Below are positions 33,550 through 64,000 of a DNA stretch of 64,000 nt, one piece after another; the stretch's first letter is position 1, and every line of letters begins with the position of its first letter. The translations under genes were made by a program, and so were the position numbers. The stretch covers positions 778 through 64,777 of the forward strand of contig JBHELH010000318.1 in assembly GCA_046263215.1 (NCBI GenBank), read 5' to 3'. Source of the DNA: Gemmatimonadaceae bacterium (GTDB lineage: Bacteria; Gemmatimonadota; Gemmatimonadetes; Gemmatimonadales; Gemmatimonadaceae). The notes beneath the pieces were generated by a model. The model was not told where the DNA came from. It saw only the letters and a list, made by a program, of their open reading frames with translations, and ran no database searches.

Positions 33550-33620
33550 TTCAAGACGCCCTCTCAGAAGGAATGCGCAATCATGAATACTCGCTCCCTG
33601 CCCATCGGTACTCTGGCCAG

Positions 33621-33688
33621 GAGGTAGAGAGGAAGGAGGAAGGAGGAGGGAGGAGCGAGGGGAGAGTGGTGGGGACTCCTCCCTCCTC
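33621..33688. repeat. Purine-rich (GGAAGGA/GGAGGGA)-armed hairpin, copy 1
   Basis: GAGGTAGAGAGGAAGGAGGAAGGAGGAGGGAGGAG...GGGGACTCCTCCCTCCTC. It shares AGAGAGGAAGGAGGAAGGAGGA and ACTCCTCCCTCCTCA with the inverted copy at 51014-51095, and overlaps the stop of the M48 gene. Confidence 0.8.
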
Positions 33689-42246: not shown

Positions 42247-42306
42247 CGAGCTGCGAGCTGTGAACCAGAGGCCCGACGGTCCTAGCTCGCAGCTCACAGC
42301 TCGCAG
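42246..42306. repeat. GCGAGCT-armed hairpin between convergent genes
   Basis: GCGAGCTGCGAGCTGTGAACCAGAGGCCCGACGGTCCTAGCTCGCAGCTCACAGCTCGCAG. The right arm supplies the last codons (..KNCEL stop) of the MpaB-like gene. Confidence 0.8.
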
Positions 42307-50876: not shown

Positions 50877-50880
50877 CAGG

Positions 50881-50935
50881 GCTTGTGAGCTTGTGAGCTT
50901 GTGAGGGCCCGGCTCCTCAAAAGCTCATAAGCTCG
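50881..50935. repeat. GCTTGTGA-armed hairpin after the amidohydrolase gene
   Basis: GCTTGTGA x3, GGGCCCGGCTC, then CTCAAAAG CTCATAAG CTCGC (8-nt units mirrored). Confidence 0.75.
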
Positions 50936-51013
50936 CCGCAGTAGGTGTCGCCGGAGCAGGCCGCGGGGGAGCGGGAGATCGACGGGCGGGGCGACATCTA
51001 CTCGCTGTTGGCT

Positions 51014-51095
51014 GGTGAGGAGGGAGGAGTGAATAGCTTGCGCCCACTTCTCCTTTCGCGTTCCTCCTTCCTCCTTCCTCTCTCCTCCTCCCTCA
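51014..51095. repeat. Purine-rich (GGAGGGA/GGAAGGA)-armed hairpin, copy 2 (inverted relative to 33621)
   Basis: GGTGAGGAGGGAGGAGTG...TTCCTCCTTCCTCCTTCCTCTCTCCTCCTCCCTCA. It covers the SD-like sequence, the GTG 51029 start and the first ~22 codons of the downstream gene. Confidence 0.8.
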
Positions 51096-52672
51096 TTCCT
51101 GCCGTCAACGTGCTCGCCTTCCTACTTCTTTCGGCCACAGTCAGCGCGCAGTCGCCAGCGCCGCGTGCGACGACTGACCCGGCGCTGACGCTCGACACGT
51201 ACGCCGCGAAAGCGGTGCGGGACTGGCAGGTAACCGGGCTCGCCCTCGCGGTGGTGAAGGATGGCCGGGTCGTCCTCGCCAAGGGTTACGGCGTCCGCGA
51301 GCTGGGCCGGTTGGCCCCCGTCGACACGCAGACGCTCTTCGCGATCGGGTCGACGACAAAGGCGATGACGGCGGCGGCGCTCGGCATGCTCGTCGACGAG
51401 GGGAACGTTCGGTGGGACGATCCCGCCACGCGGTACCTCCCCGCGTTCCAGACCGGCGACCCCTACGTCACGCGCGAGATCACCGTCCGCGATCTGCTGA
51501 CCCACCGCGCCGGCCTCGGGAACGCGGACTTTCTATGGTATGAGTCGGATCTCACCGCCGCCGAGGTGAGGCGCCGGGTGCGAATGCTGCGGCCGGCGTA
51601 CTCGTTCCGCTCAAGCTTCATCTACCAGAACGTCATGTACGCCCTCGCCGGAGACGTCGTCGAGGCGGCCAGCGGGATGCCGTGGGAGGAGTTCGTCCGT
51701 CGGCGGATCTTCACGCCACTCGGAATGACGCGCACTGTCGCGACGCTCCGGGAAGCCGAGGCGCGCGAGAACGTGGCCTCGCCGCACGATTGGGTAGATG
51801 GAGCCGTCCGCGCCATCAGGAATGCGAGCGTCGATCCTGTCGCGCCGGCCGGCTCGATCTGGTCGAGTGTGGCCGACATGGCGAGGTGGATGCGCTTCAT
51901 GCTCGACACCGCGCGCGCCGCCGACGGCCGACAGCTCATTAAAACGGGGACGTGGTCCGAGCTGCTCAAGCCGCAGACGATCGTCACGCCGCAGGGGTTC
52001 TATCCGACCGCGCGCCTGACGCGGCCGCACTGGACGACCTACGCCCTCGGCTGGTTCCAGCATGACTACAACGGCCGCGCGGTCAGCTTCCACACGGGAA
52101 GCATCGACGGCATGGTCGCCATCATCGGACTCATCCCCGACGAGCGGCTCGGCGTCGCCGTGCTGGCCAACCTCGACCACGCCGAGGTGAGGCACGCATT
52201 GATGTATACGGTGTTCGATCTTTGGGCACCGGCACCGGTGCGCGCGGTGAGCAACCACCCGCCTTCGGCGGGCCTACGTGAAGTGCGCGACTGGAGCTCC
52301 GAGCTGCTCAGGCTCTACGGCGGCATTCGGGCGCAGGCGGATTCAGCGAGGATGCGCCAGGTAGCACAACGCGTGGCGGGGACGCGGCCAACGCTGCCGC
52401 TCGAGCGCTATGCGGGGACGTATGTCGATTCGCTCCATGGCGCGGCGACGGTGACCCACGAGCGGGGGCAACTCATGCTGCGCCGCGGCGCGCGCACCGC
52501 CGTGCTCGAGCATTGGCACTACGACACGTTCCGCGCGCGCTGGGCCAACGCCTGGCAGGGAACGTCGACTCTGACGTTTGTCATCGGCGCGCGTGGGACG
52601 CCGGAGCGTCTCGAGATCGGCAGCGCGACGTTCCGCCGAAGCGAGCGCGGCCCCGACGCAGGCACGCCGTAG
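51029..52672 (+). CDS. Serine hydrolase, class C beta-lactamase/DD-peptidase family with C-terminal beta-domain; start uncertain
   Basis: S-x-x-K active site (FAIGSTTKAMTAAA) and YxN region (IYQNVMY), with a signal-like segment AVNVLAFLLLSATVSAQS. GTG 51029 is preceded by GGAGGGAGGA; the track start 50945 has no support. Confidence 0.88.
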   Translation: MNSLRPLLLSRSSFLLPLSSSLIPAVNVLAFLLLSATVSAQSPAPRATTDPALTLDTYAAKAVRDWQVTGLALAVVKDGRVVLAKGYGVRELGRLAPVDTQTLFAIGSTTKAMTAAALGMLVDEGNVRWDDPATRYLPAFQTGDPYVTREITVRDLLTHRAGLGNADFLWYESDLTAAEVRRRVRMLRPAYSFRSSFIYQNVMYALAGDVVEAASGMPWEEFVRRRIFTPLGMTRTVATLREAEARENVASPHDWVDGAVRAIRNASVDPVAPAGSIWSSVADMARWMRFMLDTARAADGRQLIKTGTWSELLKPQTIVTPQGFYPTARLTRPHWTTYALGWFQHDYNGRAVSFHTGSIDGMVAIIGLIPDERLGVAVLANLDHAEVRHALMYTVFDLWAPAPVRAVSNHPPSAGLREVRDWSSELLRLYGGIRAQADSARMRQVAQRVAGTRPTLPLERYAGTYVDSLHGAATVTHERGQLMLRRGARTAVLEHWHYDTFRARWANAWQGTSTLTFVIGARGTPERLEIGSATFRRSERGPDAGTP

Positions 52673-52806
52673 ATCGCGCGGCGTCCGCGCCCCCGCGCCC
52701 GCACCCGCGGCTGGACCCGGCGGTCGTCCGCGGCGGCGTCGCAAGCACGGAACGTGCGGCGGCGGCCTCACTTTTCTGAGATCGCCGCGACGAGAGGGAG
52801 AACAGC

Positions 52807-53865
52807 ATGAGTCCGGGCAAGGCAGTCAAGACGGTTGCGGCGCTGGCGCTCGTCGCCGGCGTCGGCGTTGGCGCATCGATCGCCGCTCGGCGAGCGGGGC
52901 CGCTGCCGGGAGCGGGCGCGCCGCAGTTGATCGGGTTGCCGATCGCGGCACAGCAGGCGGCTCGCGATGACGGCGAGGCAACCGTCATTCGCGTCGCGCG
53001 TCAGGCTACGCCGGCTGTCGTTGCCGTCAGCGTGCGCGGTGGCTCGGGCTCCGGCGTGATCGTGCGCCGCGACGGCGTTGTCATCACGAACGCCCACGTG
53101 GTCGGCAACGCGGCCGACGTGGAGATTGGGCTCGCCGATGGGCGGCGCGTCGCGGGACGCGTCCTCGGCCGCGACCCGAGCGTCGACATCGTCGTCGTTC
53201 GAATCCCGGCGGCCGACCTACCGGTCGCGCCGCTCGCCGACTCCGATCAGCTGCAGGTAGGACAGACAGCCATCGCCATCGGCAATCCGATCGGTCTCGA
53301 GCGAACGGTGACGACGGGCGTCGTCTCGGCAGTGAACCGCAGCCCCCGAGGGTTCGAGCTCGGGGGCCTGATCCAAACCGACGCCGCGATCAACCCCGGG
53401 AACTCCGGCGGCCCGCTCCTCGACTCGCAAGGGCGCGTCATGGGGATCAACACCGTCATCGTCCGGGGCACGACCGGGCTCGGCTTCGCGATCCCGATCA
53501 ACCTCGCGCGGGACATCGCGGAGCAGGTGCTGACGACGGGACGCATCCGCCGGACCTACCTGGGCATCGTGCCTGACGATCTGATCCCCGAGCTCGCGCA
53601 GCAGTACAACCTGCCGGTACGCGAGGGGATCATCGTCCGGCACGTCGAGCCGGGGTCACCCGCCGCGCGCGCAGGGCTTCAGCTCGCGGACATCATCACG
53701 CGCATCGAGGGGCAGCCGGTGGCGACGAGCGGTGACCTGCGCCGGATCCTCCGCAGCCGCAGGCCAGGCGACACCGTTCGGCTCACGGTCGTGCGGGTCG
53801 CGGGCCGGGATCGAGCAACGACACTGACGTTGACGGCCCGACTCGGGGAAGCGACGGAAGGGTGA
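52807..53865 (+). CDS. HtrA/DegP-family S1C serine protease with one PDZ domain
   Basis: 352-aa ORF with catalytic triad contexts TNAHVV, DIVVVRI and GNSGGPLL. The C-terminal PDZ contains YLGIV...GIIVRHVEPGSPAARAGL. Confidence 0.93.
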   Translation: MSPGKAVKTVAALALVAGVGVGASIAARRAGPLPGAGAPQLIGLPIAAQQAARDDGEATVIRVARQATPAVVAVSVRGGSGSGVIVRRDGVVITNAHVVGNAADVEIGLADGRRVAGRVLGRDPSVDIVVVRIPAADLPVAPLADSDQLQVGQTAIAIGNPIGLERTVTTGVVSAVNRSPRGFELGGLIQTDAAINPGNSGGPLLDSQGRVMGINTVIVRGTTGLGFAIPINLARDIAEQVLTTGRIRRTYLGIVPDDLIPELAQQYNLPVREGIIVRHVEPGSPAARAGLQLADIITRIEGQPVATSGDLRRILRSRRPGDTVRLTVVRVAGRDRATTLTLTARLGEATEG

Positions 53866-53881
53866 GGAGACGCGGCTGATC

Positions 53882-54220
53882 ATGAACTCTCTCATCTGCG
53901 AAGCGATCCGGAAGATGCGCCTGCTGATGTTCGGCTACGGCGACTTCGTGCGCGTTGTCGAGCCGCACATGTTCGGGGTGAACAGTGCAGGGCACGAGAT
54001 GCTGAGCGCTTGGCTGCGGCCGGGGCACAGCCGGAGCGATCCGGACGGTGGGTGGCGGAACTACCTCACGTCGGACATCACGAACTTGCAGATGCTCGAC
54101 GAAACATTTGCCCGGCCGCGCGAGGGGTTCAACGCGGCCGATCCGCGGATGCGCGAGATTTACTGCCAGCTCGGAGCGACCGGCGCGGCAGTCGCGGCTC
54201 GCCCTGACGAGAGCCGGTGA
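53882..54220 (+). CDS. Small stand-alone WYL-like (Sm/SH3-type barrel) protein
   Basis: 112-aa ORF. The pattern LLMFGYGDFVRVVEPHMFGVNSAGHEMLSAWL...GGWRNYLTSDITNLQMLDETF matches the WYL-domain logic (R-V-EP, aromatic-x-L strand, F/L-x-x-I-x-x-L-x-x-L-x-x-F). Confidence 0.65.
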   Translation: MNSLICEAIRKMRLLMFGYGDFVRVVEPHMFGVNSAGHEMLSAWLRPGHSRSDPDGGWRNYLTSDITNLQMLDETFARPREGFNAADPRMREIYCQLGATGAAVAARPDESR

Positions 54221-54267
54221 GCGGCGTCGGTCGCCTAAGCGCGTGTGGCGGAGAACAGCAGTCGGAG

Positions 54268-54373
54268 ACGACTGCGGACTGCGGAGTGCGGACTAGAACC
54301 CCCGGGATGCCCCTGTCACCGGCTCGGAGCGTCCCAGGGATTTGTGTCCGCAGTTCGCAGTCCGCAATCGGAC
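54268..54373. repeat. GACTGCG-armed hairpin with conserved core, copy 1
   Basis: GACGACTGCGGACTGCGGAGTGCGGACTAGAACCCCCGGGATGCCCCT...GAGCGTCCCAGGG...GTCCGCAGTTCGCAGTCCGCAATCGGAC. The core and arms are homologous to 61031-61160. Confidence 0.85.
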
Positions 54374-54384
54374 GCGGTCGTCCC

Positions 54385-55275
54385 TCACCCCCTCACGAGA
54401 ATCAAGTATCGCGACCCGGCCCAGAACTGATCGGGCGCAGTGACGCGCAGCGTGCCGGCCACCTTGCCCCCGTCCACCGTATCGGGCCTCACCAACTCGA
54501 TGCTGTGGCGGGACACAATCCGGTATCGGCCCGGCGGGAGCGGGATCGTGCGCGTCTTCGACATGTCGATCGCATTGAACGCGCCAGGCGGCAGGCGGCG
54601 CGCCGGCTGGATCGAACGCGGACCGGCGACGAGGTAGCGACGGCCGCCCTCGCGCTCGATCACGCCGCGCTCGAGGAGCTCCTTCTCAGTCGCGGCGACG
54701 TAGTAGACGGTGTTCGCCGAATCGCTGAGGCGGGCGAGGCGCGCGGCGAGGCGTGCGGTGTCCGCGGCGAGCGTCGCGACCGTGCCCTCCAGCGCGGCGA
54801 TCCGGGCGTTGAGCGCACGCTGCTCCTCCACCGCTGTCGTGCGCAGCGAATCGAGTCGCGCCGTCAGCGACGCCGCGCGCCCGTTGAGCGCTGACTCGCG
54901 GCCCGCCAGCCGCGTCACCCGCTGCCGCGCGCGCTCCAAGCGCGCTTCGCTCGAGTCGAGCTGCGCGAGGATGTCGCGCACGCGCCGGGCGAGCGCCTCA
55001 CGCTCGCGCTTCGCCTCGGCGATCTTGGACTCACCCGCCGCGCCCGTGCTCAGCTCCACGCGCAGCCGGCCCGCGCGCGCGAGCTCGTTGTTGAGCTCAC
55101 CCACGAACTCCATAACGGCCATCGATTCGGCGAGGAGCGTCGCCTGCGCGACGTCGACGCTGTCGCGCGGCGCCGGCGCGTTGCGCGTGCCGCGGCCCGC
55201 CACCACCGACTCCGCGGCGCCGTCGCTGCACGCCGCCGCGCCGGCGATGGCGGCAACCACCCAGACCCGTTTCAT
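54385..55275 (-). CDS. Coiled-coil lipoprotein, unknown function
   Basis: ATG 55275 gives a MKRVWVVAAIAGAAAC lipobox. A long Ala/Arg/Leu/Glu heptad-like central region is followed by a beta-rich C-terminal ~100 aa. Confidence 0.75.
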   Translation of the reverse strand: MKRVWVVAAIAGAAACSDGAAESVVAGRGTRNAPAPRDSVDVAQATLLAESMAVMEFVGELNNELARAGRLRVELSTGAAGESKIAEAKREREALARRVRDILAQLDSSEARLERARQRVTRLAGRESALNGRAASLTARLDSLRTTAVEEQRALNARIAALEGTVATLAADTARLAARLARLSDSANTVYYVAATEKELLERGVIEREGGRRYLVAGPRSIQPARRLPPGAFNAIDMSKTRTIPLPPGRYRIVSRHSIELVRPDTVDGGKVAGTLRVTAPDQFWAGSRYLILVRG

Positions 55276-55556
55276 TGGAACCTCTCCCATGCTCTACGGG
55301 TCCCGTAGCAGTACTTGCTCGGGATCCGTCCAGTTTCCCCCGTTGCGGCGCGGCTGCGCCGCCGCTCACCCGCTTCGCGGGTACCCGCCGACGCGCAGAA
55401 TAGTGCGCGCGTGCGCGGCGGAGCGACGTGACGAGGATCACGCGTGCGGCTGCGGGCTGCGCGCCGCGGGCCGTGGCCCTGGCGCCGAGGCAGCGGCGTG
55501 ACAGGTTTCATTGACGCAGGATCCCCACAGCCGTCGCTCAGATCGAGGTCGGAGAC

Positions 55557-58500
55557 ATGACACGCCCGCACCTTGGCCCACGAACGATCGCCGCCGTCTC
55601 ACGCCGCGTCATCGGCGTGACCCAAGTCACCACGCTCGCGATGGCCGCCACGGCCGTGGGCGCGCTTCCGCTCTTCGCGCAGGCTCGGCCGGTGCCCGCG
55701 GGCGAGCGGCGGCCACCGGAGCGCGTCAGGCCTGTCGGCTCGCTCGTCACCCGCTCCGACCTGGCCGGTCTCACGCCGGACACCGTCTCTGTCTTCGACC
55801 CCGCGGCGTTCAAGGCGCTGCGCTACCGAATGGTTGGCCCGGCCCGCGGCGGGCGAGTGACCGCGGTGACGGGCGTGCCGCAGCAGCCGCACACGTTCTA
55901 CATGGGCGCGACCGGTGGCGGCGTCTGGAAGACGACCGACGGCGGGATCACGTGGGTCAACGTCTCCGACCCGTACTTCGAGGTGGGATCGATCGGCTCG
56001 ATCGACGTCGCGGACAGCGACCCGAACATCGTCTACGTCGGCACGGGATCAGAAGGACTCCGGAGCAACGTCTCGATCGGCAAGGGCGTGTACAAGTCGA
56101 CCGACGCGGGACGCACGTGGACGCACGTCGGGCTGCGCGAGACGGGGCAGATCGGCGCTGTCGTGATCCACCCGACGAATCCGGAGATCGCGTACGTCGC
56201 CGCCCTCGGCGACCCGTTCCGTCCGACCAACGAGCGCGGCGTGTACCGCACGCGGGACGGCGGGCGCACCTGGCAGCGCGTGCTCTACGTCAGCGACTCG
56301 ACGGGAGCCGTCGACATCGAACTTCAACCTGGGAACCCCAGCGTCGTCTACGCGACGATGTGGCGCGCGGAGCGGAAGCCGTGGACGATCATCAGTGGCG
56401 CGCGCGAGGGTGGCATTTACAAGAGCACCGACGGCGGAGACGACTGGCGGAAGCTGACGAACGGGCTTCCCAATCAGCTCGTCGGAAAGAGCGACCTCGC
56501 CGTCTCACCGGCGATGCCGAACCGGCTCTACGTGCTGATCGAGGCGAAGCCGGGCGGCGGGTTGTACCGCTCGGATGACGCGGGCGAGAGCTTCTCGGCG
56601 GTCAACACGACGACGCCGGGCTTGATCACACGCCCGTTCTACTACACGAATGTCGACGCGGACCCGCTGGACGCCGACGTCGTCTACGTCGGCACCGAGG
56701 CGTTCTACAAGTCGACCGACGGCGGCCGCACCTTCCGCACGATGCGCACCCCGCACGGCGACAACCACGACCTCTGGATCAACCCGAACAACTCGAATGT
56801 CATGATCCAGTCGAACGACGGCGGCGCGAACGTGTCACTGGACGCCGGCCGCACCTGGTCGACGCAGTACAACCAGCCGACCGCCGAGCTATACCAGGTC
56901 TACGTCGACAACCAGTACCCGTATCGCCTGTACGGGGCGCAGCAGGACAACTCGACGCTCATCCTGCCGAGCCGCCCGCTGACGGCGAGTCCGCCCGATG
57001 ACCCAATGCAGCAATGGCGCCAGGGCCCGGGCTGTGAGACCGGTCCCATCATCCCTCACGCCACCAATCCGGACACCGTCTATGGCTCCTGTAAAGGACA
57101 GTACAGCCGGATGTCGCTGCGCACCGGCCAGGAGAAGCAGTACTGGGTCGGCGCGCAGTCGCTGTACGGGAACCCGGGGAAGGACCTCATCTACCGGTTC
57201 CAGCGCGTCTCGCCGATGGAGATCTCGCCGCACGACGCGACGACGCTCTACTACGGCTCGCAGCACGTGCATCGCACGCGCGACGAAGGGGTCACGTGGG
57301 AGCGCATCAGTCCCGATCTCACCGCGAACGAGCCGCAGTACCAGCAGCGCGTCTCCGGCGAGCCGATCACCATCGACGTCACGGGCGAGGAGTTCTACAG
57401 CACGCTCTACGCGATCCGCGAGTCGCCGCTCGAGCGGGGCGTGATCTGGACGGGCGCGAACGACGGCCCGTTCCACCTCTCGCGCGATAACGGCCGGACG
57501 TGGACGAACGTCACGCCTCGCGGATTGCCGCCCGGGGGACGCGTGCAGAACATCGAGCCGTCACCCAACCGCCGCGGCTCGGCGTACTACGCGGTGCACC
57601 GCTACCTTCTCGGCGACTGGCGGCCGTACATCTATCGTACGAACGACTACGGCCGGACGTGGACGCTCCTCACGCCGGGCACCAACGGCATCCCGGCCGA
57701 TCACCCGACGCGCGTCGTGCGCGAGGACCCCGACCGGCCCGGGCTCCTCTACGCCGGCACAGAGTTCGGCGTGTTCGTCTCGTTCGACGACGGCCAGCGG
57801 TGGCACTCACTCCAGCTCAACCTGCCGCGCACGCCGGTCACCGACATGAAGGTGCACCGCAAGGACCTCGTGCTCTCTACGCAGGGCCGGTCGTTCTGGA
57901 TCCTCGACGACTTGACGCCGCTGCACCAGGTTGGCGACCGGGTGCTGGCGGCACGGGCCCACCTGTTCCGTCCCCGCACTGCGTACCGCATGCGTTATTC
58001 GACGCGGTTCGGCGGCGCGGAGTCGGAGCGGCCGGCAGCGCCTGACGAGCCGCAGTATCCGCCGCCCGGCGCGGTGATCGACTACTGGCTCCGCGGTGAC
58101 GCCCAGGGACCGGTCGCGCTCGAGATTCTCGACCCGACCGGGAAGGTGATTCGTAGCTTCTCGAGCGAGGCGCCCGCCCCGGCCACGTCGCGCGCCGCGC
58201 AGGACTCCGCGGCGACGCGGCAGGAGGAAGAGCCCGGGATGCGCGCACCAACACCGGAGCGTCTTGGCGCGGCGAAGCTGCCCGTCGGCCCGGGACTCAA
58301 TCGATTCACCTGGGACTTCGCCTACGCGGGTCCGTGGGACGCGAATGCGCAGCGTAGTGGGCGCAACGGCCCGCTCGCGGCGCCGGGTGCGTACACCGTG
58401 CGCGTGACGAGCGGCGACTGGACTGCGACTCAGCCCCTCGAGGTCCGAATGGACCCGCGCCTCGCGCGCGACGGCGTGACGCTCGCCCAGCTGCGCGAGC

Positions 58501-58841
58501 AGCTCGAGCACAATCTCCGCGTTCGCGACCTGGTGAGCGAGGTGAACCTCGCCGTCGCGCGGCTACAACGAGCGAAACGCCGTCTGCAAGCGACGACGGG
58601 GAACGCCGCCGCGGCCGACACGCTCCAACGCTTGACGGCACTCGAGGCGAAGCTCGTCACGCCGCCCATCCGCTACAGTCAGCCCGCCCTCCAGGCGCAC
58701 ATCGCGTATCTGTACGGTCTCACCACTCGCGCGGACCAGGAGATAGGGCAAGACGCGGTGGAGCGGCTCCGTGTGTTGAAGCGGGAGTTGGATGCGCGGT
58801 TGGCGGAGTTGAGGGGGATTCTAGGGGCGGGCGGGAGATAG
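55557..58841 (+). CDS. Very large Asp-box/BNR-repeat (sortilin/VPS10-like double beta-propeller) exported protein
   Basis: 1094-aa ORF with at least 9 Asp-boxes (YKSTDAGRTW, YRTRDGGRTW, YKSTDGGDDW, YKSTDGGRTF, SLDAGRTW, TRDEGVTW, SRDNGRTW, TNDYGRTW, SFDDGQRW). Confidence 0.93.
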   Translation: MTRPHLGPRTIAAVSRRVIGVTQVTTLAMAATAVGALPLFAQARPVPAGERRPPERVRPVGSLVTRSDLAGLTPDTVSVFDPAAFKALRYRMVGPARGGRVTAVTGVPQQPHTFYMGATGGGVWKTTDGGITWVNVSDPYFEVGSIGSIDVADSDPNIVYVGTGSEGLRSNVSIGKGVYKSTDAGRTWTHVGLRETGQIGAVVIHPTNPEIAYVAALGDPFRPTNERGVYRTRDGGRTWQRVLYVSDSTGAVDIELQPGNPSVVYATMWRAERKPWTIISGAREGGIYKSTDGGDDWRKLTNGLPNQLVGKSDLAVSPAMPNRLYVLIEAKPGGGLYRSDDAGESFSAVNTTTPGLITRPFYYTNVDADPLDADVVYVGTEAFYKSTDGGRTFRTMRTPHGDNHDLWINPNNSNVMIQSNDGGANVSLDAGRTWSTQYNQPTAELYQVYVDNQYPYRLYGAQQDNSTLILPSRPLTASPPDDPMQQWRQGPGCETGPIIPHATNPDTVYGSCKGQYSRMSLRTGQEKQYWVGAQSLYGNPGKDLIYRFQRVSPMEISPHDATTLYYGSQHVHRTRDEGVTWERISPDLTANEPQYQQRVSGEPITIDVTGEEFYSTLYAIRESPLERGVIWTGANDGPFHLSRDNGRTWTNVTPRGLPPGGRVQNIEPSPNRRGSAYYAVHRYLLGDWRPYIYRTNDYGRTWTLLTPGTNGIPADHPTRVVREDPDRPGLLYAGTEFGVFVSFDDGQRWHSLQLNLPRTPVTDMKVHRKDLVLSTQGRSFWILDDLTPLHQVGDRVLAARAHLFRPRTAYRMRYSTRFGGAESERPAAPDEPQYPPPGAVIDYWLRGDAQGPVALEILDPTGKVIRSFSSEAPAPATSRAAQDSAATRQEEEPGMRAPTPERLGAAKLPVGPGLNRFTWDFAYAGPWDANAQRSGRNGPLAAPGAYTVRVTSGDWTATQPLEVRMDPRLARDGVTLAQLREQLEHNLRVRDLVSEVNLAVARLQRAKRRLQATTGNAAAADTLQRLTALEAKLVTPPIRYSQPALQAHIAYLYGLTTRADQEIGQDAVERLRVLKRELDARLAELRGILGAGGR

Positions 58842-58845
58842 CGGG

Positions 58846-58980
58846 GCTTGAGAGTTTGTCGGCTTGTGGGCTTGTGGGCTTTTGAGCGGGCGTTGTTAGG
58901 AAGCTCCTCGGCATAAGAAAGGGTCCCCAGTCGGGGACCCTTTCCTCTCAAGCTCTCAAGCCCACAAGCTCACAAGCTTG
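58846..58980. repeat. GCTTGTGG/GCTTGAGA-armed hairpin enclosing a bidirectional terminator
   Basis: The left arm is five 8-nt units (GCTTGAGA GTTTGTCG GCTTGTGG GCTTGTGG GCTTTTGA). The inner hairpin is AAAGGGTCCCCAGTCGGGGACCCTTT (58918-58943). The right arm is CTCAAGCT CTCAAGCC CACAAGCT CACAAGCT. Confidence 0.85.
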
Positions 58981-58984
58981 TTCT

Positions 58985-59557
58985 CTACGGCACTCGACGC
59001 TTCTTCACGTCCACCGTATGTCCGATAATTCCGCCGAGCACACCGCCGGCGGCGGCGCCGATGACGGCGCCTTTGACCTTGTTCTTGCTGGTCGCGGCGC
59101 CAATGACCGCGCCCGCGGCCGCGCCGATCGCAGCGTCGCGCCTGGTGTTCCGCTCGACGACCACTCGCCCCTCGCTGCGCGTGCCGACGTCGACGTCACC
59201 GGCCGAGGCCGTGCTCGTGCGGCCGCTGCTCGTCGAGCGGCGGCGCGTGGATGTCGGCGTCGTGCGCGTACCGCGGCGCGCGGGGCTCGACGCCGTCCGA
59301 CGGCTCGAGGTCGCCGAGCTGGCCGTCCGTCGGGCCGGCGCGGGAGCGGCCACCGGTGCGGGCTCCTCCTGCGTGGCCGGCGCCGTCTCGAACGCCGACA
59401 CGCTATCGAGGCTCTGATAGGGGCGCGCCTGCGTAGCGAGGTTCAGGTCGCGCGACAAAGCCGTGTCGCTGGCAAGTGTGCTCGCATTCTGCCCTCGGTC
59501 ACAGGCCGCGAGACCCGCCATCGCGAGCCCGATCATGATCGCATTGAGTTTCCGCAT
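58985..59557 (-). CDS. Lipoprotein with Ser/Thr/Arg-rich linker and C-terminal glycine-zipper domain
   Basis: 190-aa ORF with lipobox IGLAMAGLAAC, a low-complexity RRTASS repeats region, and a C-terminal AAIGAAAGAVIGAATS...GAVIGAAAGGVLGGIIG glycine zipper. Confidence 0.75.
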   Translation of the reverse strand: MRKLNAIMIGLAMAGLAACDRGQNASTLASDTALSRDLNLATQARPYQSLDSVSAFETAPATQEEPAPVAAPAPARRTASSATSSRRTASSPARRGTRTTPTSTRRRSTSSGRTSTASAGDVDVGTRSEGRVVVERNTRRDAAIGAAAGAVIGAATSKNKVKGAVIGAAAGGVLGGIIGHTVDVKKRRVP

Positions 59558-59989
59558 CGCTCCCTCCCGTTGCTTCGCTCGTACCCCGCATTCCGCCGTT
59601 TGTTTGCGAGCACTGCCGTTCGCTCGAGGAAGCTAGGAAGGGCAGGGGACATGCCAAACGGCCCTGCGCGACTCGTCTTCGGCCGGACTCGGCGGACGAT
59701 CGTAACTGTTCTGGCTGCAATGACTTCCAGAATGTAACAATCCTCGTCGAGTCCGTTACGAGGACCTCCAAGCGGGCCTGGATGTACTAGATTTCACCTC
59801 CGCCAAACGTATGCATATGGACCCTGTTGAGCTCGGTTCATATGCGTTCGTGCTTCGCGGCGAAGGGCCCGCTATCTGTGGGCCAAGTAACAGGTTCGGA
59901 AGGGATAGCGATCGGAAGGCCGAGCTCCATGTAGCGAACTCTAGTGTTCACAGTGCTCTCGACGAGCACCAGAGATTACGGATCGGGCG

Positions 59990-61036
59990 ATGATCAAGAG
60001 ACGTAACATTCTGGCATTGCTGCTGGCCGGCGGTCTGGTCAGTTGCGGGGAGACGCCCGGCATTCGGGACGTTTCGCCGAGCTCGGCCGTGGACATGCTG
60101 GCCGGCGTCGTCGAGAACGTCGCGAGCGCCGTGACGGGGAAGGGTCACCTCGGCTTCGACACCGGGATCTATCCGGGCGACGAGACGATGCGTGTGTGGC
60201 GCGCGACCGCACCGTACAAGTGGGTCGGCTATTACCTCCCGGCTCCCTGCCACAAGGACGACTCCTGGGCCGGCAAGCGTGCCCAGCTCACCGACATGGG
60301 CTGGGGGCTCGCGGTCATCTACGTCGGTCAGCAAACGTGGTCGGGCGTCCCCGCCAAGCACTCGACGGTCTACCGCACGACGTACAAGACCAAGACGGTC
60401 ACCAAGTACGTCAGCAAGCGCGTGAAGACCTACGTCAAGAAGAATGGCAAGCGCGTGCCGAAGTACGTGACGAAGCGTGTGCCGACCCGGGTCAAGCAGC
60501 GGGTTCCAGTCCGCACGCCGGTGCGCGTCGCGTTCGAGGAGTCGAAGCACGGACTCATGAGCTGCCAGCGGAACCTCGTCACGCAGTCGCGTGGCGCGCT
60601 CGAGGCGGCTGACGCGATCGCGAAGACCGCCGGCGAGGGCTTCCCGCGCGGCACGGTGATCTTCCTCGACATCGAGCGGATGGATGTGACGCCGAAGGCG
60701 ATGCGTGACTACTACAAGGAGTGGGTCGCGCGCGTGCTCGCGGACGGACGCTTCGTGCCGGGGATCTACGCGCACACGCACAACGCCTCGCTCATCTACC
60801 GGGACGTGAAGGCGGTCTACGCGGGTGCTGGTCGAACCGAGGAGCCGCCGTTCTGGATCGCCGGCGGGCGCAACTTCGCGCCGACGAAGGCGCCGAAGGA
60901 GATCGGGCACGCGTTCGCGGCCGTGTGGCAGGGCGTGCTCGACGTCGTCCAGGAGTGGAACGGCCACAAGGTCAAGATCGATGTCAACGTCGCTGAGACG
61001 CCGTCGCCGTCGCTGCACCGGGTCGAGGCGGACTAG
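59990..61036 (+). CDS. DUF1906 (Rv2525c-like glycoside-hydrolase-like) lipoprotein with Lys/Val/Thr-rich insertion
   Basis: 348-aa ORF with lipobox LLLAGGLVSC and DUF1906 opening GFDTGIYPGDETMRVWRATAPYKWVGYYL. It is a paralog of the next gene apart from a ~65-aa basic insert (aa ~122-186). Confidence 0.85.
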   Translation: MIKRRNILALLLAGGLVSCGETPGIRDVSPSSAVDMLAGVVENVASAVTGKGHLGFDTGIYPGDETMRVWRATAPYKWVGYYLPAPCHKDDSWAGKRAQLTDMGWGLAVIYVGQQTWSGVPAKHSTVYRTTYKTKTVTKYVSKRVKTYVKKNGKRVPKYVTKRVPTRVKQRVPVRTPVRVAFEESKHGLMSCQRNLVTQSRGALEAADAIAKTAGEGFPRGTVIFLDIERMDVTPKAMRDYYKEWVARVLADGRFVPGIYAHTHNASLIYRDVKAVYAGAGRTEEPPFWIAGGRNFAPTKAPKEIGHAFAAVWQGVLDVVQEWNGHKVKIDVNVAETPSPSLHRVEAD

Positions 61037-61160
61037 ACCAGACTAGACCGACTGCGGACTGCGGACTGCGGACTGCGGACTAGAACCCTCGGGATGCTCC
61101 TAAAGCGCTAGAAGCGTCCCGAGGCCGTGAGTCCGCAGTTCGCAATCCGCAGTCGTTTTT
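61031..61160 (+). terminator. GACTGCG-armed hairpin with conserved core, copy 2, ending in T5 (likely terminator between the paralogs)
   Basis: GACTAGACCAGACTAGACC(GACTGCG)x4 GACTAGAACCCTCGGGATGCTCCT...GAAGCGTCCCGAGG...GTCCGCAGTTCGCAATCCGCAGTCGTTTTT. Confidence 0.75.
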
Positions 61161-61189
61161 CGGTACGGTTCTTCCGTCGACTGCGGCGC

Positions 61190-62116
61190 GTGACTAATCC
61201 ACTACGCTTCGCATTGCTGCTCGTGCTCGCCTCGGGTTGCGCGCGGGTCGCGACGACACGCCCTCGGCCGGTAACGCAGAGCTTCGCCGGTTTCGACGTC
61301 GCCATTTATCCGGGCGAGGCCGCGATGCGCGCGTGGCTGCGGCCGAACTCGCCCTACTACTGGGTCGGCTACTACCTCCCCGCGCCCTGCCACCGCGACA
61401 CGTCGTGGGCCGGTAAGCGCGCGACCCTCGCCGGGATGGGTTGGGGACTCGCGGTGCTCTACGTCGGTCAGCAGGCGTGGGAAGGCGTCCCCGAACGGGT
61501 CGCGGCGGCAGACACCGCGCGTCCGGCGGGAGACACGGCGGGCGCCGCGGCGGGCGTGCAACGCAACATCGTGTGTTCGCGCACGCTGCTCACCGCGGCG
61601 CAGGGATTAGCCGAGGCGAACGACGCCATCACCAAAGCATCCGCCGACGGCTTCCCGCGCGGCACGCACATCTTCCTCGACATCGAGCGGATGACGACGA
61701 TCCCGCAGGCGATGCGGGACTACTACCGCGCGTGGGTGGCGCGCGTGCTGGCCGACGGGCGTTTCCGTCCCGCGATCTACGCGCACCAGCGCAACGCGGC
61801 CGAAATTTACGGGGACGTTCGCGCGACATTCGACGCGGCCGGCGTCCGCGACGAGCCGTCATTTTGGGTGTCGAGCCCCGCAGCGGCCACCCTGACCAGC
61901 TCGCCGTCCGAGGTCGGCTTCCGTTTCGCGCGTGTTTGGCAGCACGCGCTCGATGCGTCGCAGACGTTCAACGGCGTCACGTTGCGGCGAATCGACGCGA
62001 ACGTCTCCGACAGCCCGTCGCCGTCGGCGGCAGGGCCTGTCATCGCGAACTCAGGGCAGAGCGCGGCACGCGGGCCCGCGGGAGCGCCGCCTGGGCTGGT
62101 GACGGTCTCGCCGTGA
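61190..62116 (+). CDS. DUF1906 (Rv2525c-like) lipoprotein, paralog 2
   Basis: Start re-set to GVG 61190 read as GTG (VTNPLRFALLLVLASGC lipobox); the track start 61127 lies inside the repeat arm. Long blocks are collinear with the upstream paralog (WVGYYLPAPCH.D.SWAGKRA.L..MGWGLAV.YVGQQ.W.GVP; GFPRGT.IFLDIERM...P.AMRDYY..WVARVLADGRF.P.IYAH). Confidence 0.85.
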   Translation: MTNPLRFALLLVLASGCARVATTRPRPVTQSFAGFDVAIYPGEAAMRAWLRPNSPYYWVGYYLPAPCHRDTSWAGKRATLAGMGWGLAVLYVGQQAWEGVPERVAAADTARPAGDTAGAAAGVQRNIVCSRTLLTAAQGLAEANDAITKASADGFPRGTHIFLDIERMTTIPQAMRDYYRAWVARVLADGRFRPAIYAHQRNAAEIYGDVRATFDAAGVRDEPSFWVSSPAAATLTSSPSEVGFRFARVWQHALDASQTFNGVTLRRIDANVSDSPSPSAAGPVIANSGQSAARGPAGAPPGLVTVSP

Positions 62117-62153
62117 CGGGCCGCCGGCGCCCCACGCAGCACGCACGCGGACG

Positions 62154-62564
62154 ATGCGACACGGATTGATGTACCAGGGTGGGTTCGAGCAGAACTTCGC
62201 GACGCTCGAGCCTGGCGCGCGCACCTTCCGCACGTCGGACGGCGCGGAGCAGTCGATTCCCGACTGGCCGGAGACAGTCGACGGTGTACGCTTCGGCTAC
62301 ATGGAGCGTCGCGGTCGGAAGTTCCTGCTCGTGCGTCTCCAATTCGATGAGCACGACGTCGTCCTCCGCACGCCGGTGGCGCTCGACCGGATGCGGCACA
62401 TGGGCAACCAGCGCTTCGCCCCGCGGCCGATCCTGCTGACCGACGCCAACGCGTCAGCGCTGCTCGACGACGTGATCGAGTGCAACCCCGAGCAGAGCAC
62501 CGAGATCGCACTGTTGATCAACCGCGTGAACCAGGTGAGGCGTGGTCGGGTAGTGTCGTCGTAG
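62154..62564 (+). CDS. Hypothetical cytoplasmic protein
   Basis: 136-aa ORF with good third-position GC, 37 nt after the paralog stop. I recognised no family. Confidence 0.6.
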   Translation: MRHGLMYQGGFEQNFATLEPGARTFRTSDGAEQSIPDWPETVDGVRFGYMERRGRKFLLVRLQFDEHDVVLRTPVALDRMRHMGNQRFAPRPILLTDANASALLDDVIECNPEQSTEIALLINRVNQVRRGRVVSS

Positions 62565-62567
62565 GGC

Positions 62568-63032
62568 TCGGGCTGCGAGGGCGGAGGGGCGAGGGCGTTT
62601 CGGGGAAACAGCGTGGCCGCGGATGACGCGGATGACGCGGAAACGCGCTGATCGCTCCGTGGGACGGTCCGGCCTCCGCTCGCTGGCCCCTGGAAGACCT
62701 TTGCTACACCCCCGGGACGCCACGAGGCACCCTCCCTGTCATCCCGCAGGAGCGAGCGAAGCGAGCGAGTGTCGGGATCTACTTTACGTGCCCTGTGGGT
62801 AGCCACGCTGCAGTGGAAGTAGATCCCGACACTCGCGGCCGCATGCGGCGGCGCTCCTGCGGGATGACAGGGACGGGGCGAGGGTGGCTCCCCGCGGGTG
62901 TAGCCGAGGCATCGTCCGGGCTCGTGGCGGCGCGGAGCCTGGAGCGCAGAGGGGCGATCCGCGCTCTTCCGCGTCATCCGCGTCATCCGCGGCCGCGCCG
63001 TTCGCGAACGACGCCCTCGCCCTTCCGCCGTC
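62568..63032. repeat. Composite nested-palindromic element, copy E (full; best-preserved core hairpin)
   Basis: GCGAGGGCGGAGGGGCGAGGGCGTTTCGGGG...GGCCGCGGATGACGCGGATGACGCGG...GGAAGACCTTTGCTACACCCCCGGGACGC...core hairpin 62736-62870...GGGTGTAGCCGAGGCATCGTCCGGGCTCGTGGCGG...CCGCGTCATCCGCGTCATCCGCGGCC...CGAACGACGCCCTCGCCCTTCCGCCGTCGC. Confidence 0.9.
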
Positions 63033-63038
63033 GCTTCC

Positions 63039-63572
63039 CTACCGCTTCGGCAGATCGGGACAGTTCTCTCGCCGCCGGGTGTCGGTCAATCCGAAGATGC
63101 GCCAGCCTGCGGGGCGGCGAACCATCTGGAAGGCATCGACTCCGCAGTGGTTCTTTCGGTCGCCGATGTAGAAGGTGTAATCGACCCACGCGACCGCGTA
63201 GGGACCGTCGATGAGGACGCGCTCGTTGGCGATTCGCTCGTCATAGACTTCCGCGTGCGGCGTGCCGATCGCGCGCAAGAACATGCCGAGCGAGTCGTCG
63301 GAGACGGTGAGTGCGCCCTGACGGACGCCGACGCTCTGGAGGCGCGCCCCGGGCTCGAAAAGCGCCCGCGCCGCGCTGCTGTCCTGCGCGCGCATCGCGT
63401 CGAACAGACGCTGGACGACGTCGACCACCTCGCGCTCGCGAGCACCAAGTGTGGCGGTCTGCGACCGAGAGCTCGCGGCAACGGTTGCCGATGACGAGGC
63501 GCTACTGCGCGGCGCCGGCACCGTACAGGCGGCGGCGAGCAAAGCTGTGGCGGCGAGAGGTGCGCAACGCAT
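63039..63572 (-). CDS. NTF2-like (SnoaL/DUF4440-type) lipoprotein
   Basis: Start re-set to ATG 63572 (MRCAPLAATALLAAAC lipobox). NTF2-like core: VVDVVQRLFDAMRAQD...ERVLIDGPYAVAWVDYTFYIG...GVDAFQMVRRPAGWRIFGLTD. Confidence 0.75.
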   Translation of the reverse strand: MRCAPLAATALLAAACTVPAPRSSASSSATVAASSRSQTATLGAREREVVDVVQRLFDAMRAQDSSAARALFEPGARLQSVGVRQGALTVSDDSLGMFLRAIGTPHAEVYDERIANERVLIDGPYAVAWVDYTFYIGDRKNHCGVDAFQMVRRPAGWRIFGLTDTRRRENCPDLPKR

Positions 63573-63666
63573 TAGCTGAGGCGTGAAGGCGTCGGAGAGA
63601 ACGTGACGGCGACGCCCCGTGCTGTCCAGCGTCCGTCGCGGGGGCTTACAGTTTCCGAACCGCGGC

Positions 63667-63945
63667 TCACCAGTCGCCGCGCTCCTCGCCACGCCGGTAC
63701 GCGCGCAGCAGCGTGAAGACGATTCCGGTATTGCCGACGATCACCCCGGAGTAGAACGCGAGCCTCGCGTAGCGGTCGTCGGTCGTATGCATCGACCAGC
63801 CGAGCAGGTAGAGACCGATCAGCATCCACATCACGCACAGCGCGCCCGTGCGGACCATGTCGCGTCGTCGGACGCGCTCGGCCTCCAGCTCCGCGGCCTC
63901 TCGGGCCCGGGCCATCTCCTCGAGCAACTCTTTGCGAAGCGGCAT
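63667..63945 (-). CDS. Small membrane protein (2 TM); 5' limit uncertain near window edge
   Basis: ATG 63945 gives MPLRKELLEEMARAREAAELEAERVRRRDMVRTGALCVMWMLIGLYLLGW...FYSGVIVGNTGIVFTLL. The track ORF starts at TTG 63996 and the frame is open to the window end. Confidence 0.5.
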   Translation of the reverse strand: MPLRKELLEEMARAREAAELEAERVRRRDMVRTGALCVMWMLIGLYLLGWSMHTTDDRYARLAFYSGVIVGNTGIVFTLLRAYRRGEERGDW

Positions 63946-64000
63946 GCGACCGGCCCGCGCGGTGGAATCGATCGACGAGTGGATCCGACCAAACAAATGC

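Follow-up and report, generated by a model that had tools for sequence, protein, structure and literature searches.

Foldback transposons such as FB of Drosophila and Galileo carry long terminal inverted repeats built of tandem subrepeats, and the subrepeat count differs from copy to copy and from arm to arm. Their centres are variable and most copies are non-coding; they are eukaryotic elements of kilobase scale, with identified transposases and target-site duplications. In bacteria, palindromes of the Correia, ERIC and REP type sometimes act as terminators, and insertion of IS elements into REP loops provides a precedent for nesting. The STRR of cyanobacteria are lineage-specific intergenic tandem heptamers. 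In Xanthomonas campestris and X. axonopodis, 70-75 inverted pairs of GGGAATC arrays were found per genome (Rehm et al. 2015, PMC4692102). These pairs mostly contain about four units per array and lie at a mean distance of 28 nt from the upstream stop codon; 83% are conserved in position with changes in length, the paired type being kept while lengths differ between related genomes (PMC4692102). TAACTGA repeats of Beggiatoaceae, which lie upstream of start codons, form 169 direct sets versus one inverted set, and among long simple repeats a period of seven is the most common (PMC4679880). A mutational process relevant to such structures is template switching at inverted repeats, in which one event both makes the arms alike and flips the spacer (PMC8794818, PMC8604942, PMC5941160).

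The window, by which we mean the whole 64,000-nt stretch of Gemmatimonadaceae DNA that was analysed, contains elements that resemble the Xanthomonas pairs in several respects. Here too, one unit forms an array on each strand, the two arrays being convergent and closely spaced, and the G-rich unit is that of the 5' arm. The elements lie between genes, adjoining the stop codon of the upstream ORF, and one relative, L003, even has the units TAGGGAT/GGGAATC. The element under study (58842-58984, 143 nt) is a single hairpin lying between two convergent stop codons, TAG at 58839-58841 for the plus-strand gene and CTA at 58985-58987 for the minus-strand gene, and it occupies the entire gap between them. 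The upstream gene (55557-58841, plus strand), the stop of which lies 1 nt before the element, encodes a 1094-aa protein that appears BNR/sortilin-like by eye. The convergent gene (58985-59557, minus strand), with its stop adjoining the element, encodes a glycine-zipper lipoprotein (Pfam Gly-zipper_YMGG, 1.5e-11).

On the plus strand, the left (5') arm (58844-58887) consists of approximately five GCTTGTGR units and variants (GCTTGAGA, GTTTGTCG, GCTTGTGG twice and GCTTTTGA), and is followed by an unpaired spacer (58888-58917, plus strand) without a counterpart on the right side. The inner GC hairpin (58918-58943) is a terminator-like core, with the stem AAAGGGTCCCC at 58918-58928, an AGTC loop and the return arm GGGGACCCTTT at 58933-58943. 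Its flanks are merely A3 and T3, and a consensus scan gave this core no canonical U-tract terminator score, as there is only TTT after the stem. The right (3') arm (58945-58978, plus strand) has about four units (CTCTCAAG twice, CCCACAAG and CTCACAAG), which complement those of the left arm. The original prediction had described five 8-mers on the left and four on the right around a perfect inner stem. TRF bore this out, with arrays of period 8 at 58844-58881 (4.8 copies, 76% matches) and 58945-58978 (4.2 copies, 88% matches; inverted repeats I12 and I18). The predicted RNA folding energy was -79.1 kcal/mol (z = -6.6) for the plus strand and -70.2 kcal/mol (z = -7.4) for the minus strand; none of 200 shuffles reached the folding energy of this element.

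Similar structures were claimed for other intergenic regions of the window, and every locus listed in the original prediction was confirmed to fold as a hairpin with repeat arms. A strict TRF-based scan identified eight mirrored pairs (18041/18234, 30304/30372, 37817/38030, 42246/42284, 50881/50916, 54270/54346, 58844/58945 and 62618/62957), while three listed loci were marginal or very lopsided (10828-10854, 33621-33688 and 51014-51095). A second GCTTGTGA-type hairpin (50881-50935; 3.1 left and 2.4 right units) begins 4 nt past the stop of the 49134-50876 gene. GACTGCG arms are found at 54268-54373 (3.6 and 3.0 units, with convergent genes on either side), at its full-length homologue 61031-61160 (4.6 perfect units on the left and a degenerate right arm with the GTTCGCA variant, as in 54268) and at 18029-18268 (3.4 and 4.9 units around a 170-nt interior), while the marginal member at 10828-10854 has a stem of only 9 bp and three GACTGCR units in direct orientation. 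The right arm of a GGGTGGA hairpin (30301-30395; 3.1 and 4.0 units) overlaps the last codons of a histidine kinase gene. The GCTATCR-armed element (37785-38077; 4.0 and 3.9 units) has a 185-nt interior containing its own GC hairpin, and the GCGAGCT hairpin (42246-42306; 2.1 and 3.3 units) lies wall to wall between convergent genes. Both GGA-rich loci are lopsided: a GGAGGAA-type array of about five units faces a short CCTCC arm of about two (33619-33688), and a short left arm of about two to three GGAGGGA-type units faces 7.3 copies of CTCCTTC (51014-51100). Three composites complete the set, namely a nested palindrome (62560-63049) with a mirrored layer of CGCGGATGA 9-mers (62618-62641 and 62957-62991), an element with outer CGGAAGAGCG 10-mers (4841-5192; 4.1 and about two units) and one with 5.1 copies of CGCGCTCTTC in the right arm and none in the left (20185-20560). 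Searches of the loci with Rfam covariance models gave no match at the gathering score or at permissive thresholds, and sub-threshold matches were generic long hairpins only.

Mirrored pairs were far more frequent than in 100 dinucleotide-preserving shuffles of the window (eight observed; shuffle mean 0.02, maximum 1). In a partner test of arrays with periods of 7, 8, 10 or 11, 11 of 26 window arrays (non-triplet periods) had a partner array in inverted orientation no more than 400 nt away, and none of the 26 had a direct, reversed-only or complemented-only partner. In 500 kb of plasmid 2 of Gemmatirosa kalamazoonensis, 22 of 130 arrays had inverted partners, versus 0, 0 and 0 for the other three types. 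The same structures are present in a finished isolate replicon as well as in many independent MAGs. These results confirm that the mirrored arrays are real and far beyond chance, which the original prediction had considered an unlikely cause. That chance or an assembly artefact produced them, a notion to which the genome's GC richness and repeat content lend all the support there is, has virtually no probability in the face of the shuffles, the internal controls and the recurrence in independent assemblies.

The density of mirrored arrays is 125 per Mb in the window and 38-44 per Mb in G. kalamazoonensis and Gemmatimonad MAGs. In other phyla the architecture is sporadic (approximately 5 per Mb), and it was absent (0) from the Longimicrobia loci examined. 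The elements are 60-500 bp long, with arms in which a lineage-specific unit of 6-11 nt is repeated two to six times in tandem, and usually with a non-repetitive core or loop; unit repertoires differ from genome to genome. Two to four dispersed copies per family occur within the 64-kb window, where the elements at 54268 and 61031 align along their arrays and core and have a right-arm variant in common. The GGACTGAAGAA family of G. kalamazoonensis has six copies and a possible partial seventh at GK 102069 (500 kb), with 3.4 units per arm in five of the six. A conserved terminus, CTCCACGTACG...CGTACGTGGAG, lies outside the arrays in all copies, and loops and linkers are variable; fixed termini with variable loops are the usual MITE pattern. 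Because these families are dispersed and copied as whole palindromes, the loci are not independent, and the six unrelated unit sequences that had been counted as separate cases cannot be treated as such.

Turnover at individual sites was apparent among relatives. Exact-product look-ups of two window proteins were negative, so that the comparison did not extend to strains of the same species, and plasmids queried by megablast with 24 kb likewise gave no match. In the closest relative, the fully syntenic L072, with orthologues of 70-84% amino acid identity, the focal site has approximately 8 nt and no element, and the site corresponding to 54268 has an unrelated ordinary hairpin. Downstream of orthologues of the 1094-aa gene, ordinary terminators are present in L002, L010 and L011, and tandem-armed hairpins with unrelated units in L003, L074 and L076. 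Nested elements were found at GK 83492-83646, in L076 compared with L074 and in the window composites. The L076 contig terminates within an array, and such elements break MAG assemblies.

We consider it about an even chance (probability roughly 0.5) that these loci are small, non-coding, dispersed foldback/MITE-like palindromes, which slippage, and now and then template switching, have remodelled. The inverted GGGAATC pairs of Xanthomonas serve as a precedent in the literature (PMC4692102). In the proposed mechanism, arrays on either arm are made and remodelled when replication slips at short repeats of non-triplet period, as the one-arm unit differences between relatives show (L005, L006 and L007 compared). 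The mirroring of the arms would derive mainly from inverted-copy ancestry and propagation of whole palindromes, and template switching within the hairpin, of which one footprint is described below, may occasionally re-symmetrise arms and flip loops. The presence of families with several copies, of orthologous sites lacking an element and of nesting suggests that copies may spread by mobilisation to further gaps at gene 3' ends, and also into hairpin loops already in place. Judging from position, resident elements would then replace the ordinary terminator hairpins found at the same sites in relatives.

Several observations weigh against this reading. Many families with few copies are unusual for transposase-driven MITEs, U-tracts are mostly absent from the elements, and the element at 18029-18268 sits between divergent genes, in a promoter gap. 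Among the 20 window ORFs scanned, none encodes a transposase, reverse transcriptase or integrase, and no autonomous parent or cognate transposase with the same ends was found in the window or in 500 kb of G. kalamazoonensis. Around the six GGACTGAAGAA copies there was no direct repeat indicative of a target-site duplication; instead, the inverted repeat extends 2-5 nt further.

A purely local origin, in which ordinary terminators grow in place by slippage and selection for RNA stem length, with immobile elements and convergent units, would account for the location at gene 3' ends, the ordinary terminators of relatives at the same sites and the one-arm unit change between L005 and L006. It is also in keeping with the slippage-prone nature of heptamer-type repeats in general (Mrazek 2007, as cited in PMC4679880). 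However, unlinked loci are homologous over their full length, including non-repeat cores and shared arm variants, outer termini are conserved beyond the arrays, and irregular 8-nt variant units are mirrored exactly. Furthermore, selection at the RNA level should leave more G.U than A.C mismatches on the sense strand, and with hairpins oriented by the upstream gene we counted 14 of each. Thus, there is no detectable RNA-level selection, a point that also weighs against the preferred reading, although equal counts favour palindromy at the DNA level. We regard a purely local origin as distinctly unlikely.

Whether the dispersed palindromes are also kept symmetrical at each locus is a related issue. 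The original prediction held that duplication on one arm destroys pairing unless copied to the other, which was wrong, since such a duplication merely adds an extra unpaired unit. It had also proposed an active symmetrising process, of which a footprint can indeed be seen. In an orthologous pair from related MAGs, L005 has GGGGCTCGGC-ATC-GCCGGGCCCC and L006 has GGGGCCCGGC-GAT-GCCGGGCCCC. Between the two, the loop has been flipped and the left arm has come to match the complement of the right arm exactly, so that one template-switch event explains four differences. The proposed check that unit counts of the two arms correlate gave a positive result (Spearman 0.72 for 54 pairs; 0.75 for the 42 pairs left when each family contributes one). 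Irregular variants of the unit occupy matching, mirrored positions in the two arms (L014, 4708-4776; GK 60365), several perfect palindromes of 23-37 bp contain mirrored irregular units, and two ACGCGGAGA copies differ by a compensated G-C/A-T change.

Other observations indicate that any such process is neither strong nor continuous. The same L005/L006 pair differs in unit count by one, in the right arm only. Unmirrored one-sided expansions persist, with left and right counts of 3.9 and 11.4, 4.4 and 15.7, and 0 and 5.1 (the window copy at 20185-20560). The elements at 54268 and 61031 share a right arm that is still degenerate while their left arms are clean, and in the six-copy G. kalamazoonensis family one-sided changes exceed compensated ones by approximately 10 to 1. 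The correlation of counts would also be expected from descent from palindromic founders alone. Hence, although template switching is an established route of hairpin creation and repair (PMC8794818, PMC8604942), it seems unlikely that frequent fold-back or template-switch copying creates and maintains the mirrored arrays locus by locus. Repeat addition at both 3' ends of a break was also considered; it explains arm polarity but predicts independent arm counts, which was not what we found.

Some features of the arms hint at sequence-specific recognition, which lies outside the model of slippage-remodelled palindromes. The 5' arm is G-rich or purine-rich in 31 of 38 families, conservation of arms and termini is approximately 95-100%, in contrast to scrambled loops and linkers, and CGCRRAGG, a motif chosen post hoc, matches 11 of 21 units of at least 8 nt versus 1.6 expected, in several phyla. 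These features would suit arrays that serve as periodic protein binding sites, the alternative raised in the original prediction, either as subterminal repeats of a transposase or as sites for a host nucleic-acid-binding factor, with the arm sequence itself being maintained. Nevertheless, dozens of different units occur within and between genomes, so that no single specificity fits. The periods of 6-11 nt do not match the helical repeat, no candidate protein was found, and the families are not independent; binding-site arrays are therefore a rather improbable explanation.

The G-rich 5' arms could also suggest G-quadruplex or other non-B DNA, as proposed for the GGGNATC arrays of Xanthomonas and Nostoc. 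GGGAATC repeats are reported to form G-quadruplexes in vitro (PMC4692102), and G3 runs are present in some units here (GGGTGGA, GGGCTTGT and those of L003). In contrast, most units lack G3 runs (GACTGCG, GCTATCA, GCGAGCT, GAAGACGA, GGACTGAAGAA and others), the GGGNATC-type unit is absent from the window units (GACTGCG, GCTATCA, GCGAGCT, GCTTGTGR and others) and was seen only in L003, and a G-rich arm never occurs without its complementary arm, as suits a duplex hairpin better. This explanation is very improbable.

As for location, tail-to-head or convergent gaps hold 27 of the 28 intergenic loci, many of them only 1-10 nt away from a stop codon, and about 40% of tail-side gaps in the window carry an element. 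Divergent gaps make up approximately 20% of all gaps, yet have only one element (18029-18268). A consensus scan found one canonical U-tract terminator versus five expected in 50-64 kb, and no match to this consensus at the element loci. On the basis of position, the elements probably act as U-tract-less bidirectional terminators or 3'-end stem-loops. Two other ideas about the arms were rejected. A role in providing translational stops in three frames, through a stop-bearing unit repeated at a non-triplet period, did not hold, as 29 of 41 units have no stop codon and the difference between 5' and 3' arms (8 versus 3) was not significant. Similarly, a purine 5' arm and pyrimidine 3' arm might be a GC-rich analogue of the A-tract and U-tract, but the ordinary hairpins between genes in these sequences, short and perfect, are unpolarised (12 purine-rich versus 13 pyrimidine-rich), indicating that arm polarity is not a general terminator property here.

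If our preferred reading of mobile palindromes is right, a whole bacterial family fills the 3' ends of its genes with foldback elements of fast turnover. This would offer a natural system for the birth of long hairpins and terminators, by slippage and template switching versus mobility, for the ending of transcription in GC-rich bacteria without U-tract terminators and for the tolerance of long near-perfect palindromes, the longest G. kalamazoonensis arms being 55 bp with one mismatch. The elements could serve as markers for strain typing, and the isolated observation of GGGAATC pairs in Xanthomonas would be joined to a broader class of repeats. Much more tentatively, and as an unlikely reading, one may imagine a dedicated structure-directed system in Gemmatimonadaceae, and sporadically in other phyla, that builds or mobilises foldback elements from near-arbitrary units with a CGCRRAGG-like preference and a fixed polarity, the G-rich or purine-rich array being on the 5' arm whichever strand is read. 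Candidates may be a hairpin-specific recombinase or transposase, or repeat-adding fold-back repair at breaks or terminators. If true, this system would be to prokaryotes what Foldback transposons are to eukaryotes.

The elements were also compared with known systems. Xanthomonas has essentially one unit type, read as G-quadruplex-forming, whereas the window has at least eight, mostly incapable of this structure. Non-repeat cores, outer termini and nesting accompany them here, and the character of a dispersed element is undescribed in Xanthomonas. Other intergenic heptamer repeats are likewise lineage-specific and abundant but are overwhelmingly direct rather than mirrored hairpins. Integron attC cores (RYYYAAC ... 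GTTRRRY) were found at 0 of 12 loci on either strand, and the genes flanking the elements are housekeeping genes in both orientations. Template switching matches the L005/L006 difference exactly but is a mutational mechanism rather than an element family; it accounts for how stems arise and are kept, and leaves dispersal, arm polarity and unit preference unaccounted for. Like MITEs, the elements have terminal inverted repeats, are small, lack an ORF and occur in several dispersed copies per family; like Correia, ERIC and REP/BIME repeats, they are small, non-coding, dispersed, hairpin-forming and located at gene ends. Those families are not described as having arms of tandem units, no associated transposase was found here, and the GTAG/GTGG head of the 20-40-nt REP palindromes was absent at the 5' ends of all 12 loci. 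Foldback transposons share inverted arms of tandem subrepeats whose number varies by copy and arm, as in the window and G. kalamazoonensis, though no transposase or target-site duplication was seen in the present elements. Altogether, the elements resemble known foldback or miniature mobile repeats in a prokaryotic form, and do not look like a novel type of system.

The 143-nt gap between the convergent stop codons of two genes is occupied throughout by a single hairpin, in a window whose GC content is ~70%. The upstream gene, which ends with a TAG stop at 58839-58841 on the + strand, encodes a 1094-aa protein that is BNR/sortilin-like as judged by eye, without a Pfam scan, and the convergent gene (stop 58985-58987) encodes a glycine-zipper lipoprotein assigned by Pfam. 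The left arm (58844-58881) consists of 4.8 units of period 8, GCTTGTGR and variants, and is separated by a 30-nt unpaired spacer from a perfect core, AAAGGGTCCCC-AGTC-GGGGACCCTTT (58918-58943), which is followed by 4.2 units complementary to the left arm (58945-58978). The predicted RNA fold had an energy of -79.1 kcal/mol on the + strand (z = -6.6) and -70.2 kcal/mol on the - strand (z = -7.4). The original description of arrays, a perfect core and a complementary arm at this site was correct.

Hairpins with such mirrored tandem arms had been proposed across the window, and all 11 loci listed did form hairpins with repeat arms upon folding, with three of them (starting at 10828, 33621 and 51014) being marginal or very lopsided. 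A strict scan, in which TRF arrays of equal period had to lie within 400 nt of each other and to have units that were reverse complements with at most one mismatch, identified 8 mirrored pairs, versus a mean of 0.02 in 100 dinucleotide-preserving shuffles. The control that we consider best kept the arrays as found and counted the orientation of their partners. Window arrays of period 7, 8, 10 or 11 had an inverted partner in 11 of 26 cases, and never a direct, reversed-only or complemented-only one; in 500 kb of plasmid 2 of Gemmatirosa kalamazoonensis, the corresponding counts were 22 of 130 versus 0, 0 and 0. The view that chance is an unlikely source of these structures was thus borne out. 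Of the 25 longest inverted repeats in the window, the majority are parts of these elements or of the long nested palindromes that make up the composite family. A GC-rich array of four 15-mers, CGCCGCCGCCCGACG, lies within an ORF at 37154-37225, presumably as a coding repeat of low complexity.

We repeated the strict scan on fetched loci totalling 1.1 Mb. Many Gemmatimonad loci carried mirrored arrays built of units that differ from those of the window, including TGGGCTC, TAGGGAT, GGACGGG, GAAGACGA, ACTGCGT, AAGGTCGCG, TTGTCG/ACGACA, GCTCTCG and CACTGA, and a few were found elsewhere (Vicinamibacterales L071, Cyclobacteriaceae L045 and L063, and the unclassified contigs L084, L088 and L107). 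Mirrored pairs per Mb numbered 125 in the window, 38 in the 500 kb of G. kalamazoonensis plasmid 2, 44 in Gemmatimonad MAG loci, 0 in Longimicrobia loci, 4.7 in other genome loci and 17.7 in other metagenome loci. None of the window units occurred in the other genomes compared, and unit repertoires are genome-specific. GGGCTTG-type, CTGCG-type and GGGAATC-type units were each found in more than one taxon.

The nearest relatives of the 1094-aa protein were in Gemmatimonadaceae MAGs (73-75% identity) and in the metagenome contig L072 (84%), which is syntenic with window 51110-59557 over six genes (orthologues 70-84% identical in amino acid sequence). In L072, only ~8 nt separate the stops at the focal site, and the site of the 54268 element holds an ordinary, unrelated hairpin. 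Downstream of other orthologues of the 1094-aa gene, we observed ordinary terminator hairpins, several with T-tracts (L002, L010, L011), or tandem-armed hairpins with unrelated units: TAGGGAT with 3.9 left and 11.4 right units (L003), GCTCTCG with 4.4 and 15.7 (L074), and CACTGR (L076). The L003 hairpin (6703-6832) extends across the stop of the gene and is built of TAGGGAT/GGGAATC units, the heptamer type reported to be enriched in Xanthomonas and Nostoc. The L076 contig terminates within a CGAGAGC array (7560-7615), and so these elements probably fragment metagenome assemblies.

The loci are dispersed elements rather than independent local inventions. The elements at 54268 and 61031 are homologous along their arrays, in a non-repeat core (GGACTAGAACCCYCGGGATGCYCC...GCGTCCC) and in a shared degenerate right-arm unit, GTTCGCA. 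The 61031 element, of the GACTGCG type, is the sole separator of two tandem paralogues, 59990-61036 and 61127-62116; the product of the latter is a Pfam-confirmed Rv2525c-like glycoside-hydrolase-like protein, to which the former was judged similar by eye. The GGACTGAAGAA family of G. kalamazoonensis comprises six copies, plus a possible partial seventh at 102069. These palindromes measure ~115-140 bp, and their outer terminus, CTCCACGTACG...CGTACGTGGAG, does not vary. Five of the six have 3.4 units per arm; a variant middle unit is present on both arms, and loops and linkers are scrambled. Conserved ends with variable interiors are the usual MITE pattern, and the ACGCGGAGA and GCTGCGTG families behaved likewise. 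Elements were also nested: at 83492-83646 of G. kalamazoonensis, a CACAGAGGA hairpin lies within the loop of a CCGCAGAGGG hairpin, and a comparison with L074 placed a composite element inside the GCTCTCG hairpin of L076.

The window composites are layered palindromes of 370-510 nt with a CGGAAGAGCG array as the outer layer. An inner module, GTCATCCCGCAGGAGCGAGC ... GAGTGTCGGGATCT, was present at 20310-20400, 23490-23620 and 62727-62880, and at ~7290-7420 of L076, a MAG locus whose orthologous protein is only 68% identical. The module matched no Rfam family; its conservation suggests an RNA under constraint, or else a core that binds protein or is mobile. In plasmid 2 of G. kalamazoonensis, a finished replicon, a near-perfect palindrome (L110, 35261-35373) pairs at 55 positions around a 7-nt loop, with a single mismatch, and its stable presence indicates that the host is unusually tolerant of long palindromes.

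An active symmetrising process, such as fold-back or template switching, had been proposed to account for the mirrored arms. Consistent with this proposal, left and right unit counts were correlated, a check that had been suggested at the outset (Spearman 0.72, n = 54; 0.75 with one pair per family, n = 42). Irregular units were mirrored in place in L014 (an 8-nt AAGGGGCG among 9-mers) and at 60365 of G. kalamazoonensis (an outer CGCGGAGG), and the two copies of ACGCGGAGA, although both perfectly palindromic, are distinguished by a compensated G-C/A-T pair. The clearest footprint came from L005 and L006, which are ~90% identical overall. Their orthologous hairpin reads GGGGCTCGGC-ATC-GCCGGGCCCC in L005 and GGGGCCCGGC-GAT-GCCGGGCCCC in L006; the loop has been reverse-complemented and the left arm is now the complement of the right, so that one template switch accounts for four differences. 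Published work attributes this signature to template switching at inverted repeats (PMC8604942, PMC8794818).

Other observations spoke against symmetrisation as the main force. The same L005/L006 pair differs by one unit in the right arm only. Large indels between L006 and L005 (L005 16364-16389 and 20583-20630) are one-sided tandem arrays, GTCATGCGCCGCGC x3 and GCGCGGTGA x6, indicating that array birth is fast and often one-sided. Long, perfectly homogeneous arrays remained unmirrored (15.7 versus 4.4 units, 11.4 versus 3.9, and 5.1 versus 0 in the composite at 20185-20560), and the 61031 element has 4.6 perfect units in its left arm, while its right arm retains old variants common to 54268. 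Among the six GGACTGAAGAA copies, one-sided changes outnumbered compensated ones by ~10 to 1. The premise that duplication on one arm destroys pairing was incorrect; it merely adds an unpaired unit, and the stem survives. We conclude that slippage works on each arm separately, that template switching happens but is occasional, and that the mirror symmetry comes mostly by descent from a founder that was itself palindromic. The observation was confirmed and its interpretation partly supported; template switching is real here, but it is not the main explanation. Selection on RNA structure would favor G.U over A.C mismatches; in hairpins whose sense strand was known from the upstream gene, transition-type mismatches were equally divided (14 G.U, 14 A.C), and palindromy therefore looks like a DNA-level property, although the sample is small.

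Gap orientations were taken from a crude GC3-based gene caller, corrected by Pfam results. Of the 28 intergenic elements counted, 12 from the window and 16 from G. kalamazoonensis, all but one (27 of 28) sat in a tail-to-head or convergent gap, often with a stop codon 1-10 nt away or overlapped by the element. The remaining one was in a divergent gap, a class making up ~20% of gaps (binomial P ~0.015). By gap, elements were present in 6 of 9 convergent, 8 of 24 tandem and 1 of 9 divergent gaps of the window. In window 50000-64000, one canonical stem-plus-U-tract terminator was found, versus 5.0 +/- 2.2 expected from shuffles, and a search for sigma-70 consensus promoters in that region found none. 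The position of the elements and the scarcity of U-tract terminators support a terminator or 3'-stem-loop role, which we infer, or at least insertion tolerated only at 3' ends. In the divergent case, 18029-18268, mirrored GACTGCG arms flank the 170-nt promoter region that separates a glyoxalase gene from a MarR-like gene. This region contains a GATAGC/GCTAT mini-palindrome as well as an AT-rich box, TATAGTATT, and the context of the element may be regulatory rather than that of a terminator.

The arms also showed a polarity. Among 41 unit families (window, L110-L119 and other loci), the 5' arm, on both strands, had G > C in 31 versus 7 (31/38) and was purine-rich in 28 versus 8, the families not being fully independent and the P values hence optimistic. 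This polarity was absent from ordinary short hairpins of these sequences, and stop codons within units did not account for it. The motif CGCRRAGG, chosen post hoc, was matched with at most one mismatch by 11 of 21 units of at least 8 nt (1.6 expected), always on the 5' arm. These 8-9-nt units span several phyla (window 62618-62991 and 4841-4882; G. kalamazoonensis L110-L114; L014; Cyclobacteriaceae MAGs L045 and L063; unclassified L088 and L107). Arms were strongly conserved relative to loops. Together, polarity, unit recurrence and arm conservation leave room for a sequence-reading factor or horizontal spread.

In architecture, the nearest class is that of the eukaryotic Foldback transposons, which have inverted arms composed of a variable number of tandem subrepeats. 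The present elements resemble bacterial MITEs and REPs in being small, dispersed and similarly positioned, but REP heads and attC cores, sought at 12 loci, and target-site duplications, sought around the six GGACTGAAGAA copies, were not found. No Rfam family matched the elements, and full-text literature searches revealed no account of them for Gemmatimonadota. The nearest published case was reported by Rehm et al. 2015 in Xanthomonas (PMC4692102), where each genome has ~186 GGGAATC arrays, with 70-75 cases of convergent opposite-strand pairs. The mean distance of those pairs to the stop of the upstream gene is 28 nt, 83% keep their position in a comparison of two species while changing in length, and their 5'-arm polarity is the same as observed here; they were interpreted as G-quadruplex motifs, and a status as dispersed palindromic elements was not considered (PMC4692102). 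The loci described here, which probably serve as terminators, fit best as a variant, enriched in this lineage and comprising several families, of two kinds of element: foldback/MITE-like intergenic palindromes and Xanthomonas-type inverted short-repeat pairs.
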